Notes: a model not told the origin generated them from the sequence alone. Counted from the stretch's first letter, positions 10,712 through 20,261 are shown. The stretch: 32,000 nucleotides of DNA from Candidatus Saccharimonadota bacterium (GCF_014252415.1 NZ_CP059223.1:360001-392000); one strand, 5' to 3'. Numbers and translations are program-made.

Positions 10712-11419
10712 TCAATTATTTTTATTTTTTTTTCTATTAAAATTTTTTAGCTTCTTTTTTTTATGATAATGTGTTCCTAATAATGGATATAAATTCCTTT
10801 TTCCATAAACTTCCCCTTTCATAATCCAAACTTTTACACCTATACTTCCATAAATAGTATGAGCAACTTCCATGTGATAATCAACATCGGCACGAAAAGT
10901 ACCTAAAGAAATCCTTCCTTCTTTATAAGTTTCACACCTTGCCATTTCTGATCCATTTAATCTTCCAGAGATTTGAATTTTTATTCCAAATGCATTCATT
11001 CTCATTGCAGATAAAATAAACAATTTTATTAATTTTTTATAAGAAATTCTATTTTCTAGTTGTTTAACTACGCTTTTAGAAACTAAAGATGCATCCAATT
11101 CTGGTCTCTTTACCTCGGATATATTAATTTGTATTTCTTTTTTAGTTAATTTTTTTATTTCTTTTCTAACAGTATCTACTTCTTCACCTCTTTTACCTAT
11201 AATAAGAGCAGGTCTAGAAGTTCTAATTGTAATTGTGATAAATTTTAATGTTCTTTCTATAAAAATTCTTGATATTATTCCTTTAGGAAATCTAGCCTCG
11301 ATATATCCTCTTACTTTAAAATCTTCTTGTATTCTATCTTTATAATTGTTGCACCAACTGGATAACCATCCAGTTATAATTCCAAGACGGTTAACTATTG
11401 GATTTGTTTTTTGTCCCAT
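10712..11419 (-). CDS. rpsC: 30S ribosomal protein S3
   Basis: N-terminus [14 protein letters not shown] and KH-domain motif GKRGEEV; 235 aa. Confidence 0.97.
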
Positions 11420-12077: not shown

Positions 12078-12902
12078 TTATTTTCTTTTTTTTATAATGT
12101 ATTTATTAGAATATTTTTTTCTTATTCTAGTTCTAAATCCTTTAGATGGTTTTCCTTTTCTACTTCTAGGAATACCTCCAGAAGCTTTTCCTTCCCCACC
12201 CCCCATTGGATGATCTATAGGATTCATTGCTACACCTCTTGTTCTAGGTCTTATTCCAATATGTCTAGATTTCCCAGCTTTTCCTAAGATTTCCAATTGA
12301 TGATCATGATTCGATACAGATCCTATTGTAGCCATACAATTAGACATAATCATTCTTGTTTCTCCAGAAGGTAATTTTATAGTAACATATTTATCTTCTT
12401 TTGCAGATATTTGCGCAAAAGATCCGGCACTTCTAGCTAATTTTGAACCCTGACCTGGTTTCAATTCTATACAAGAAATAATTGTACCTAGAGGGATTTC
12501 ACTTAATATTGTAGAATTTCCAATTTGAATTGGTATATTTTTTTTCCCGGAAATAATTTTATATCCTACTTTTAATCCATTTATAGCAATAATATATTTT
12601 TTTTCTCCATCTACATAGTGTAATAAAGCAATAAATGATGATCTATTAGGATCATATTCGATTGATTTTACGGTAGCTGAAATCATAAATTTTTTTCTTT
12701 TAAAATCAATAACTCTATATTTTTTTTTATGACCACCTCCAATATAACGCATAGTTCTTCGTCCATAATTATTTCTCCCCCCAGTTTTTAATTTTCCTAT
12801 CGTTAATTTTTTTTCGGGAAAGGAATTAGTAATTTGATCAAATTTATTTACAATTCTAAATCTTTGACTTGGTGTTATTGGTTTTAATTTCTTTGTTGCC
12901 AT
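12078..12902 (-). CDS. rplB: 50S ribosomal protein L2
   Basis: The conserved L2 N-terminus [16 protein letters not shown] starts at the ATG at 12900-12902, and the [15 protein letters not shown] and HPMGGGEGK motifs are present. The ORF-track version (to 13085) adds 61 non-conserved codons. These begin at a TTG inside rplW and are generated by the tandem repeat. Confidence 0.96.
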
Positions 12903-13329
12903 TGGAATTATTTTTATCACTTGTAGTTTCTTTATTGATAGTAGTTTCTTTATTGATAGTAGTTTCTTTATTGATAGTAGTTTCTTTATTGATAGTAGTT
13001 TCTTTATTGATAGTAGTTTCTTTATTGATAGTAGTTTCTTTGTTAATAGATGATTGATTAAAAATGATTTTACTATTTTTATCAAATTTTATAATAACTT
13101 TCTTGAAACGATCCATTTGTCCTTTTAAAAAACCCTTTTTTGAAAATTTAGATTTATCTTTTTTAGGATAAATCATAGTATTTACTTCAATGACATTAAA
13201 TCCAAATAAATTAAAAATTTCTTTTTTTATTTGTTTTTTATTATATTTTTTATTTACAATAAATGTATAAAAATTATTTTTTTCATTTATTAATGATTTT
13301 TTAGTTATAGCAGATTTTATAATAATCAT
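12856..13329 (-). CDS. rplW: 50S ribosomal protein L23 with a repeat-encoded C-terminal extension
   Basis: The first ~95 aa ([13 protein letters not shown]...NVIEVNTM...[16 protein letters not shown]) match the L23 family in sequence and length. The frame then continues through seven INKETT units plus 21 further codons to TAG at 12856-12858, which is 47 nt inside rplB. Confidence 0.93.
12923..13048. repeat. 18-bp tandem repeat, 7 copies (6 perfect and 1 with two substitutions)
   Basis: The plus-strand unit GTAGTTTCTTTATTGATA starts at 12923, 12941, 12959, 12977, 12995 and 13013. The copy at 13031-13048 reads GTAGTTTCTTTGTTAATA. All copies were read directly from the sequence. Confidence 0.98.
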
Positions 13330-17032: not shown

Positions 17033-17509
17033 TCAGAATCTAAAATGTGAAAATGCTTTATTAGCTTCAGCCATTTTATGTATATTTTCTTTTCTTTTTA
17101 TAGATTCACCTTGTTCATTAAAAGCATCCCATATTTCAAATGCTAATTTATTAGCCATGGTTTTTTCATTTCTTATTGATGCACAAGTCACTAATAATTT
17201 CATAGCTTTTGTAATTTTACTACTAGAAGAAATTGGGACTGGTATTTGAATATTTGACCCCCCCATTCTACGACTTCTTACTTCTACATGTGGAGTAACA
17301 TTTTTTAAACTTTCTTTCCATATTTCTACCGAAGATTTTTTTTCATTTTTTTTAATTAAATCAATTTTTTTCATTGCATTATAAAATATTTTATATGCTA
17401 AACTTTTTTTTCCATTCTTCATTATATGATTTACAAAACGTGTTATAAGAATATCATTAAATTTTGGATCAGGTATATAAATTTTTATTCTTCTTTTAAT
17501 TTTTCTCAT
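17033..17509 (-). CDS. rpsG: 30S ribosomal protein S7
   Basis: 158 aa; [26 protein letters not shown] and the C-terminus [11 protein letters not shown]. Confidence 0.97.
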
Positions 17510-17880
17510 TTTTTTTTCATTTTTGTTCCATATTTACTTCTACTTCTTTTTCTTCCATTAACCCCGGCAGTATCTCTTGCTCCTCTTATTATTTTATATT
17601 TTACACCAGGTAAATCTTTTACACGTCCTCCTTTCACTAATACAATAGAATGTTCTTGAAGATTATGTCCTTCTCCTGTTATGTAACTAATGACTTCCTT
17701 ACCATTTGTGAATCGTACTCTTGCTACTTTTCTCATTGCAGAATTAGGTTTTTTTGGAGTAGTAGTATAAACTCTAGTACATACTCCTTTTTTTTGAGGA
17801 CAAAATTCTAAAGCAATGGATTTTCTTTTTTTTGAATTAGAAATTCTACCTTTTCTAATTAGTTGTTGTATAGTAGGCAT
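17506..17880 (-). CDS. rpsL: 30S ribosomal protein S12
   Basis: The conserved start [12 protein letters not shown] is at the ATG at 17878-17880, and the [15 protein letters not shown] motif is present. The 37 upstream codons in the ORF track overlap map and are not conserved. Its TGA stop overlaps the rpsG ATG. Confidence 0.97.
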
Positions 17881-17887
17881 AATAAAT

Positions 17888-18709
17888 TTAAAATTTAATT
17901 TTTTTATTTTGAAATGGTTTCTCCTCATCCGAGAAAATATTAAGTTCATCATAAATATAACTAAAAGTAGATAGAAGACAAGGTTTACCATCTATAATTG
18001 CTATATTATGTTCATAATGAGATGAATTTTTTTTATCTAAGGTAGTAATAGTCCAACCGTCTTTGTGAAAGATTATATCAGATTTTCCTAAATTCACCAT
18101 AGGTTCGATTGACAATACAAATCCATTTTTTAATTCAATTCCTTCTCCTTTTTTTCCAAAATTAGGAATTTGAGGATCTTCGTGCATTTTTTTTCCTATT
18201 CCATGACCTACTAAATCCTTTACTATAGTAAATCCATTTTTTTCTATAAAAGATTGAATAGAAAATCCTATATCACCTATTTTATTTCCAGAAATACATT
18301 GGGAAATCCCAATATAAAGAGATTTTTTAGAACAAGATAAAAATTTTCTATTTTTTTTTGATATATTTCCAACTTCAAAAGTATAAGCGTGTTCTCCATA
18401 AAACCCATTCATATATACACCACAATCTACAGATAAAATATCGCCATTTAATAATACATTTTTATTGGGTACCCCATGTACTACTTGGTAATTTGGAGAT
18501 ACACATAATGTATTTGGATAGTTATATAACCCTAAAAAAGCTGGTTTTCCTCCATGATCAATAATAAAGTTTTTTGCTAGTTTATCTAAATAAATAGTAT
18601 TAATTCCGGGTTTTATTTCCTTTGCCAACATACCTAAAGTTTTAGATGCTAAAAATGCACTTTTTTTTATTAATATTATTTCTTCAATAGTTTTTATCAA
18701 AATATTCAT
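17888..18709 (-). CDS. map: Methionine aminopeptidase, type I
   Basis: Metal-ligand regions [41 protein letters not shown] and HYEHNIAI are present. I chose the ATG at 18709 ([11 protein letters not shown]...). The ORF-track start at 18751 would overlap gpmI. Confidence 0.95.
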
Positions 18710-18713
18710 AAAA

Positions 18714-20261
18714 TTAATTATTGTTATTTCTATTAATAATAGAAAATCCATTCATATCATCAGGAACAGGTAGTTTCATTAGATTTAAAATAGTTGGTGC
18801 AATATCACATAATGAACTATTTTTATTTAAAATAATATTATTCTTTTTTATATTATTATCTAATAAAATAAATGGTACCAAAGAATTACTATGAGATGTA
18901 TTTAAACTACCATTTGTATTAATCATATAATCTGCATTACCATGATCTCCTACAATAATAACTGTATACATATTATGTAATGCTACATTTGAACATTCTT
19001 TAACACATTTATCAACAATTTCACATGCTTTTATAGTTTGAATCATATTTCCTGTATGTCCAACCATATCTGGATTTGCAAAATTTATACAAATAAAATC
19101 AAATTCTTTTTTTTTTATTTTTGGAATAATTTTTTTTACGATTTTTATTGCACTCATTTCAGGTTTAATATCGTAAGTTTTTACATTTGGTGATGGACAT
19201 AAAATTCTTACTTCTTTATCAAACGGTTTTTCTCTTCCACCAGAAAAAAAGAAAGTAATATGAGGATATTTTTCTGTTTCTGCTATACGAATTTGTTTTT
19301 TCCCTTCTTTTGATAAAATTTCTCCTAGCGTATTTGATAAATTTTCTTTTTCAAAAATTGAAATAATATTTTTATATTTTTCATTAAAAGATGTCATTGT
19401 TATGTAATGCGAAAGATTAATATTATTATAATTTTTTATTTCGAAATTATTATTTGTTAATAATTCTGTTATCTGTCTAGATCTATCTGAACGATAATTA
19501 AAACAAAAGACAATATCTCCATTTTCTATTTTTGAAATAGGTTGATTATTTTTATCTATCATTATTAATGGAGATAAAAATTCATCCGTTTTTTTCATCT
19601 TATAAAAATTTTCTATAGAATTTATAATATTATTAGTATAAGTTCCTTTAGAATTTACCATAGCATCATATGCTATTTTTGTTCTATCCCATTTTAAATT
19701 TCTATCCATTGCATAAAATCTTCCAATAACAGATGATAATTGTCCAACATATTTATTAGTTATAGTTAATAATTTTTTTATATAATGAATTCCGTTATAT
19801 GGAGAAGTATCTCTACCATCCATAAATGCATGAATAAATACATTTTTTAAATTATTTTCATGAAATATTTTAAGTAAATATAATAAATGATTTATATGAG
19901 AATGAACTCCCCCATCTGAAAGAAGCCCAATAAAATGAATTTTTTTATTATAAGAAATATTTTTGAATATATTATTTATTTTTTTGGTAAAAAATCCATT
20001 TTTTATAGATATATTAATTTTTTTTAAACTTTGAATAACTCTTCTTCCAGAACCTATATTGATATGTCCAACTTCAGAATTCCCCACTTGTTTATTAGGT
20101 AATCCTACATATTTTCCAGATGCATTTAATTTACTATTTGGATAATTTTTAATACAAAAATCTATAAATGGAGTATATGCTTTAGCTATTGCAGAAACAG
20201 ATTGATTTTCGATCGATGTTACTCCCCATCCATCTAAAATTATCAACATTAATTTTTTCAT
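18714..20261 (-). CDS. gpmI: 2,3-bisphosphoglycerate-independent phosphoglycerate mutase
   Basis: 515 aa. It has the N-terminus LIILDGWG, the catalytic-Ser region GNSEVGHINIGSGR and the C-terminal motif GDHGNAD. Confidence 0.97.
   Translation of the reverse strand: MKKLMLIILDGWGVTSIENQSVSAIAKAYTPFIDFCIKNYPNSKLNASGKYVGLPNKQVGNSEVGHINIGSGRRVIQSLKKINISIKNGFFTKKINNIFKNISYNKKIHFIGLLSDGGVHSHINHLLYLLKIFHENNLKNVFIHAFMDGRDTSPYNGIHYIKKLLTITNKYVGQLSSVIGRFYAMDRNLKWDRTKIAYDAMVNSKGTYTNNIINSIENFYKMKKTDEFLSPLIMIDKNNQPISKIENGDIVFCFNYRSDRSRQITELLTNNNFEIKNYNNINLSHYITMTSFNEKYKNIISIFEKENLSNTLGEILSKEGKKQIRIAETEKYPHITFFFSGGREKPFDKEVRILCPSPNVKTYDIKPEMSAIKIVKKIIPKIKKKEFDFICINFANPDMVGHTGNMIQTIKACEIVDKCVKECSNVALHNMYTVIIVGDHGNADYMINTNGSLNTSHSNSLVPFILLDNNIKKNNIILNKNSSLCDIAPTILNLMKLPVPDDMNGFSIINRNNNN

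Follow-up and report, generated by a model that had tools for sequence, protein, structure and literature searches.

What is a perfect tandem repeat doing in the reading frame of an essential ribosomal gene? The question is raised by rplW, the gene for ribosomal protein uL23, in a 32,000-nucleotide stretch of DNA (NZ_CP059223.1:360001-392000; "the window" below always means this whole stretch). Beyond the part of rplW that encodes the conserved protein core, an array of 18-nucleotide units is read seven times over as the peptide INKETT. We put the probability at roughly 0.7 that this array arose recently by slipped-strand expansion within a linker free of constraint and that it is translated and tolerated, with no dedicated function.

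The array and its reading frame

On the plus strand, the unit GTAGTTTCTTTATTGATA occurs six times with zero mismatches at 12923-13030, as determined by an exact string test, and GTAGTTTCTTTGTTAATA adjoins the six perfect units as a further copy at 13031-13048. Using Tandem Repeats Finder (TRF), we recovered one array in the region (12923-13049) with a period of 18, 7.1 copies, 98% matches, 0 indels, and a score of 240. The second-ranked array in the window scored only 79. A stretch of 108 nt with perfect periodicity is far beyond chance. In codon phase, the seven copies of 18 nt run from 12922 to 13047 on the minus strand and encode (INKETT)7, or 42 residues. The copy translated first reads ATT AAC AAA GAA ACT ACT and differs synonymously at two sites from copies 2 to 6, which are identical (ATC AAT AAA GAA ACT ACT). 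A third synonymous difference is at the end of copy 7, which has ACA where the others have ACT. None of the three changes alters the peptide, each falls at a third codon position, and all are in the two edge copies. An earlier note on this DNA had described the perfect array in rplW, its peptide, and its frame, as well as the lack of comparable repeats elsewhere in the window, and our TRF scores, string test, and per-copy translation agree. The same note had called the copy differences synonymous, which is right for the two that it listed; the third went unlisted as its unit phase was off by 1 nt.

Since the 18-nt unit equals six codons, any copy number preserves the frame, and the rplW open reading frame (ORF) is unbroken through the array to a TAG at 12856-12858. 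We rejected the idea of a phase-variable contingency locus: the unit never shifts the frame, and the gene is an essential ribosomal one in an obligate endosymbiont. The frame of the downstream gene rplB is also open across the whole array (minus strand, 12903-13085; the mechanical ORF spans 12078-13085, with a TTG start and LLSIKK repeats), so that a +1 shift within the array would fuse uL23 to full-length uL2. The third reading frame has a TAA in each repeat unit.

Codon usage points to how the copies arose. The Ile codon of the repeat unit, ATC, is rare, accounting for 6 of 191 Ile codons across five neighboring genes. In the divergent first copy, Ile is encoded by the common ATT but Asn by the rare AAC. 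Six-fold copying of a rare codon indicates that a DNA segment was amplified, and recently, with no sign of optimization at the codon level. Likewise, arrays that have expanded recently usually show, as this one does, identical interior copies bounded by divergent ones at the edges. The GC content of the window is 23.2%.

The gene that carries the array is otherwise an ordinary rplW. Its product matched the Pfam family Ribosomal_L23 (PF00276) with 60.9 bits against a cut-off of 30.8, covering residues 2-90 of the protein and positions 2-86 of the 86-position profile. The best match among solved uL23 chains was 7jil_T from Flavobacterium johnsoniae (96 aa; E = 4.9e-11; residues 3-92 aligned). 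About 63 residues lie past the normal C terminus, of which the array makes up 42; the excess had been estimated at the same value before, and the Pfam core and the 7jil_T alignment bear this out. The array sits between the core with a short linker (…KIIFNQSS) and an older linker and tail (SDKNNSNG…). The closest protein matches of the window uL23 were L23 proteins of Blattabacterium cuenoti (72% and 61% identity), and the window organism is a strain of this cockroach endosymbiont. The earlier note's guess of a Flavobacteriales endosymbiont was therefore correct.

Stop loss, an older tail, and a second array

We compared the locus with its relatives. The closest available strain, ALLACbim (CP059221), has uL2 and uL4 proteins that are 86.5% and 83% identical to those of the window. 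Its uL23 has 116 aa, with core, linker, and tail all alignable and no array. Exact look-ups of the window uL23 and uL2 in a public protein-position index returned no entry, so the window strain is absent from that index. Other genes in the operon region have almost the same length in the window as in ALLACbim (fusA, 700/700 aa; rpsJ, 101/101; rplC, 213/213; rplB, 274/274), which makes rplW the outlier. The INKETT array had no counterpart in about 20 Blattabacterium uL23 clusters or in any match from a search of 5.8 billion proteins. Two repeat units gave 0 DNA matches in metagenome contigs, and a scan of metagenomes for uL23 relatives returned only one distant, irrelevant locus.

The ancestral end of rplW could be located by aligning it with these relatives. 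In most Blattabacterium and in free-living Bacteroidota, uL23 has a normal length of 94-98 aa, and most Blattabacterium strains of that length retain an ancestral TAATG junction, or its equivalent, between rplW and rplB. In strain Bge, for example, uL23 has 96 aa and the junction reads …GAAGTTTAATGTCA, with the stop and start overlapping as TAATG (locus L007, 1789-1793). In array-free relatives with longer proteins, rplW instead runs into rplB, with an overlap of 59 nt in ALLACbim (116 aa) and 47 nt in CP059199 (113 aa). The overlap is 50 nt in strain EUPHYsp, which lacks the INKETT array. A uL23 tail of 13-17 residues is thus already encoded within rplB in relatives without the array, and the C termini of ALLACbim (…NGDKKIETDNTKSEIQSCK) and CP059199 both align with that of the window uL23. 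This end-tail is an alternative frame of the conserved uL2 N terminus (M-A/S-x-K-K-L-K-P-x-T-P-S/G-Q-R-F), and it appears conserved because the overlapping uL2 N terminus is conserved. NCBI annotates the proteins of 113 and 116 aa as L23; the 145-aa protein of EUPHYsp is present there without a name.

Given overlaps in array-free relatives, we rejected the array as a cause of the overlap or of the stop loss. In the window, the rplB ATG is at 12900-12902, and the position of the rplW stop 47 nt inside rplB had been given correctly before. Two accompanying claims did not survive the comparison. The stop had been placed inside rplB on account of the repeat, but relatives overlap by 47, 50, and 59 nt without it. 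The repeat and 21 further codons had been treated as one extension, which would instead have been built stepwise, by a frame change with stop loss, then the tail, and then the array.

Intermediate states of the junction are found among the relatives. The rplW frame is at offset 1 relative to rplB in extended strains and at offset 2 ancestrally, and as a result the ancestral stop is no longer read. In EUPOLsin, uL23 has 105 aa and ends at a TAG formed from rplB codons 3-4 (GTT AGA), an 11-nt overlap (locus L006, 3305-3315). Where uL2 has K for R at position 4, this TAG is gone and rplW extends to a TAG within the QRFR codons (47-50 nt). In ALLACbim, it ends instead at a TAA that lies 59 nt into rplB. 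In CP059217, uL23 has 104 aa, and a 6-nt spacer separates it from rplB in the same frame (locus L008, 1813-1824). The rplW/rplB junction is therefore unusually labile in reduced strains within an otherwise rigid operon. Strains with extended uL23 have genomes of 511-571 kb, save EUPOLsin at 639 kb.

A separate gene end in the window has also changed. There, rplV (uL22) has lost a TAA kept by ALLACbim (GATAAAAAAAAATAATCATGG vs GATAAAAAAAATTATCATGG) and continues for 29 nt within rpsC, a gain of about 10 residues (11391-11419, minus strand). Its occurrence alongside the change at rplW supports the view that constraint on gene ends is relaxed.

Furthermore, the INKETT array is not the only one at this junction. 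At 511 kb, the genome of EUPHYsp (CP059204) is the smallest that Kinjo et al. 2021 (PMC8382890) report for Blattabacterium. Its uL23 has 145 aa and ends in …NKQNLIVNNNNNKQNLIVNNNNNKHFNKNDNKQNLNVNNKKIKTYNTGTKV, with KQNLIVNNNNN repeats. The 3' linker of its rplW holds a perfect 33-bp array of 2.2 copies in frame (locus L004, 3271-3344; TRF score, 148). A diverged third copy matches at 29 of 33 positions and reaches and includes the rplB ATG (L004, to 3379); the best of 3,000 random placements matched at 24 of 33. The unit and peptide are unrelated to INKETT, and the unit length is again a multiple of three. Across about 70 kb, comprising the window and eight related loci, only two arrays had a TRF score above 100, and both were in this segment of rplW. 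We regard them as two independent expansions at one junction, which would make it a recurrent hotspot. The earlier description of the INKETT array as unexpected is weakened to that extent, given an independent in-frame array at the same site.

The source of the INKETT unit may be close by. The unit matches 14 of 18 nt of AACAAAGAAATTAAAACC, in the 5' codons of rplB, and the two have the 10-mer AACAAAGAAA in common, which is present 3 times in the window, where 0.56 would be expected (empirical P ~0.03, post hoc). These matches are no more than suggestive of derivation from rplB, and we do not rely on them. For the EUPHYsp array, the corresponding comparison with the rplB start is clearly positive (29/33, null maximum 24). 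In EUPHYsp, there is also a degenerate repeat with a 33-bp period at the 3' end of rplD and the rplD-rplW junction (L004, 2912-2990; 78% match; TRF score, 85), and uL4 has 219 aa in this strain vs 209-213 aa in others.

Table 1. Features of the rplW/rplB locus, in window coordinates
Feature	Position	Strand	Basis
rplW (uL23) coding sequence, 157 aa including array and tail	12856..13329	-	ORF listing; Pfam Ribosomal_L23, E = 1.6e-16; best matches Blattabacterium cuenoti L23; place in S10 operon
Conserved uL23 core, residues 2-90	13060..13326	-	Pfam span; alignment to 7jil_T residues 3-92; AlphaFold2 pLDDT 80-95
Four codons (NQSS), ancestral C terminus of normal 94-98-aa uL23	13048..13059	-	Alignments with relatives
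In-frame minisatellite, 7 x 18 nt, (INKETT)7	12922..13047	-	TRF; per-copy translation; no counterpart in relatives
Post-array linker SDKNNS and first base of Asn codon; adjoins rplB ATG	12903..12921	-	Alignable to ALLACbim linker (DNA and protein)
rplW/rplB overlap, 47 nt; uL23 tail as alternative frame of conserved uL2 N terminus	12856..12902	-	TAG inside uL2 QRFR codons
rplB (uL2), 274 aa; start 20 nt downstream of array	12078..12902	-	Pfam Ribosomal_L2_N and Ribosomal_L2_C; N terminus aligns with relatives

The surrounding gene order, rplC-rplD-rplW-rplB-rpsS-rplV, is the same in the Blattabacterium loci L001, L002, and L007. The window contains the str, S10, spc, and alpha ribosomal operons along with tsf, dnaK, ftsH, yidC, secY, and others. 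Elsewhere in the window, about 54 residues precede the S12 domain in the mechanical ORF of rpsL, which shares 104 nt with the end of the ORF of map, the gene for methionine aminopeptidase (minus strand; 17506-17991 and 17888-18751). These residues probably reflect an in-frame upstream ATG and not a true extension.

Origin of the array and competing explanations

We propose the following sequence of events. An ancestral rplW would have ended at about 94-98 codons, with its TAA stop and the ATG of rplB fused as TAATG. In strongly reduced strains, an indel would have shifted the rplW frame so that the stop was lost and translation continued to the TAG in rplB codons 3-4. An R4K change in uL2 would then have removed that TAG, with translation proceeding to a TAG or TAA 47-59 nt within rplB. 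The outcome would be a short piece of coding sequence, almost free of constraint, from the uL23 core to the rplB start. There, in the lineage of the window, an 18-nt unit may have been amplified to seven copies by slipped-strand mispairing or by unequal exchange between sister chromosomes. The array would be translated as a charge-neutral, hydrophilic, disordered spacer of 42 residues in the C-terminal tail of uL23. Two things may account for its tolerance: the tail would project from the surface of the ribosome, and the A-rich, structure-free RNA would leave rplB initiation undisturbed.

Several features of a coding minisatellite are present: near-perfect head-to-tail copies, divergence at the edges only, a unit length divisible by three, an open frame, and absence from orthologues. 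We infer slippage as the mechanism, translation of the array, its neutrality, and a link to the loss of replication and repair genes. The last of these draws on published work. For Blattabacterium, Kinjo et al. 2021 (PMC8382890) report raised mutation rates and a rate of gene loss that climbs with the mutation rate. By the same report, the gene for the Pol III sliding clamp is missing in all Blattabacterium genomes below 600 kb except those of Anaplecta and Mastotermes (PMC8382890). In Portiera of Bemisia, tandem repeats have proliferated, which coincides with losses of dnaN, dnaQ, mutL, and other genes (Sloan and Moran 2013, PMC3673631).

Several points weigh against this account. The array and its copy number are those of the assembled sequence. 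A link to lost dnaN or mismatch repair in the window strain would reach beyond the 32-kb window. Among four loci from species-representative genomes and the metagenome scans, there was no strain closer than ALLACbim, and hence no single-copy seed. Finally, synonymous-only differences and unit lengths of 18 and 33 nt, both multiples of three, would also fit selection on the peptide or the frame. Under simple assumptions, P is ~0.04 for the synonymous-only differences and ~0.11 for both units being multiples of three, and the counts behind these values are small.

The most serious competitor, though an unlikely one, is that (INKETT)7 was selected for altering the polypeptide-exit platform, either by tethering the basic end-tail farther out or by offsetting a lost factor. 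uL23 is located at the tunnel exit, where it docks the signal recognition particle (SRP), trigger factor, SecYEG, and YidC. Both secY and yidC are encoded in the window. This proposal could also draw on the purely synonymous copy differences, on the independent in-frame expansion of the same site in two lineages, and on the L22, L23, and L29 of Mycoplasma pneumoniae, a species with a reduced genome in which these proteins have C-terminal extensions near the exit tunnel (PMC10568206; bioRxiv 10.1101/2020.02.28.970111). However, the peptides INKETT and KQNLIVNNNNN are unrelated, and three related reduced strains have no array. The N, K, I, T, and E composition is expected from AT-biased codons, one of the codons in the unit is rare, and perfect identity of the copies implies an array too young to have been shaped by selection. 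Moreover, the M. pneumoniae L23 extension is itself predicted to be unstructured and has no discernible density in the in-cell ribosome map of a study by cryo-electron tomography and cross-linking (bioRxiv 10.1101/2020.02.28.970111).

Structure prediction for the tail is consistent with tolerance. In an AlphaFold2 model of the window uL23 built on a 43-sequence alignment, residues 1-90 had the expected alpha/beta fold, with a block-mean predicted local distance difference test score (pLDDT) of 80-95. From about residue 91 to 157, the block-mean pLDDT fell to 51-65, and the only secondary structure was a three-residue helical turn at 92-94. With 7 K and 7 E, the array residues have a net charge of 0, the remainder being Asn, Thr, and Ile. 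Such a composition suits a flexible hydrophilic spacer, unlike the basic extensions that bind ribosomal RNA (rRNA). The earlier note had left two options for a tail at the exit tunnel, a functional one and a merely tolerated one; the model, with low confidence in the tail, lends no support to the first, and the second is favored.

A broader form of selection seems improbable as well. By this proposal, long flexible tails at the hotspot in the most reduced Blattabacterium lineages would be under selection, re-tuning the docking of SRP, YidC, SecY, or chaperones or replacing a lost exit-site factor, or else the copy number would vary between host populations, making a hypervariable locus of part of an essential ribosomal gene.

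It is also quite improbable that short-read mis-assembly produced the array or its copy number, so that the true genome has fewer copies, more, or none. A repeat of 126 bp is near common short-read lengths, such that single reads may not span it, and the array is known from one assembly of the strain. Yet assemblers usually collapse tandem repeats and do not invent them. In addition, specific differences mark the edge copies, the junctions with the flanks (alignable with ALLACbim) are clean, and another strain, assembled independently, carries a different array at this site. Because the frame is kept at any copy number, a repeat-bearing uL23 tail would survive an error in that number. An artefact is therefore unlikely for the presence of the array and possible for its copy number.

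Even less probable is selection on the messenger RNA, in which the array would be a long, A-rich, structure-free leader that aids Shine-Dalgarno-independent initiation of rplB after the loss of TAATG coupling. That coupling is indeed gone in these strains, the window array ends 20 nt upstream of the rplB ATG, and the EUPHYsp array abuts the ATG and partly copies the rplB start region. Consistent with this, a 201-nt RNA segment covering the array and the start of rplB had a minimum free energy of -1 kcal/mol (z = +2.64), and 200 of 200 shuffles folded at least as well. By the same measure, the array puts no structure ahead of the rplB start, and we rejected a structured RNA element or leader upstream of rplB, the segment being less structured than its shuffles. 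Nevertheless, a junction of this kind with no array serves for rplB expression in ALLACbim, CP059199, and CP059217, nearly any sequence from a G-poor sense strand at 23% GC is weakly structured, and normally just ~20-30 nt upstream of a start count, making seven copies superfluous.

Least likely of all is a noncoding array, with uL23 ending near residue 92-94 through an undetected upstream indel error or frameshift and the repeat serving as an rplW-rplB spacer: an other-frame TAA lies just ahead of the array in TTTTTAA, error-prone A5 and T5 homopolymer runs lie just upstream, and a shift to one of the two other frames gives ...NHF and then a stop, but the same offset-1 frame is open through the linker into rplB in each of four relatives assembled independently, NCBI treats the proteins of 113 and 116 aa as L23, the unit length is divisible by three, and all differences are synonymous in the rplW frame.

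A tolerated expansion in an unconstrained linker thus remains our preferred reading. By itself, the array reveals no new mechanism and probably has no function of its own. The locus would nonetheless give a clean and datable illustration of how proteins can grow in degenerating genomes: a stop is lost, translation reads into the next gene, and an unconstrained linker is left open to slippage, here twice independently at one junction. If polymorphic, the array would serve conveniently to tell apart strains of a symbiont that cannot be cultured, and it would be a direct read-out of replication fidelity in lineages for which loss of the Pol III sliding clamp has been reported. Furthermore, uL23 can probably bear a disordered tail of 63 residues, which is relevant to uL23 tagging and ribosome engineering.

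Comparison with known systems

The array exemplifies a kind of event that is already known, and the hotspot and stepwise stop loss are more interesting than the array. In the searchable literature, we found no description of the window array, the EUPHYsp array, or in-frame repeats in endosymbiont ribosomal proteins. A paper on a repeat at chloroplast rpl23-ycf2 concerns an intergenic spacer and is a loose parallel only.

Gene overlaps that arise by stop loss are familiar from reduced genomes such as that of Carsonella. The window locus resembles them in that rplW ends at the first in-frame stop within rplB, and rplV behaves likewise toward rpsC. The process accounts for the 13-residue end-tail and the overlap but not for the array.

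Low-complexity and tandem-repeat insertions in housekeeping proteins form a wider pattern in AT-rich genomes. Like these insertions, the array is in frame, hydrophilic, rich in Asn and Lys, disordered, positioned at a surface-exposed terminus or loop, of DNA-level origin, and tolerated. In contrast, such inserts are rare in bacterial ribosomal proteins, and the window array lies 20 nt upstream of an overlapping essential gene. More generally, protein tandem repeats are associated with intrinsic disorder (census, PMC7230257), and large in-frame inserts are known from plastid genes (PMC2410131).

Portiera offers a parallel at the level of the genome. It too is an ancient obligate insect endosymbiont with an AT-rich genome, accelerated evolution, and tandem repeats, and the sliding clamp has been lost both in Portiera BT (PMC3673631) and in Blattabacterium genomes below 600 kb (PMC8382890). 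The repeats themselves differ. Those of Portiera are mostly 7 bp and occur in expanded intergenic regions, whereas the window has a single 18-bp coding minisatellite in a compact operon.

At the level of the protein, the closest likeness is to the L23 of Mycoplasma, where a reduced genome likewise encodes a lineage-specific C-terminal extension, predicted to be unstructured, on a normal uL23 core. The Mycoplasma extension is older and common to both M. pneumoniae and organisms closely related to it, whereas the window tail combines read-in to rplB with an evidently very recent array in one strain. The resemblance is an analogy that implies no common descent, and the window extension arose within Blattabacterium.

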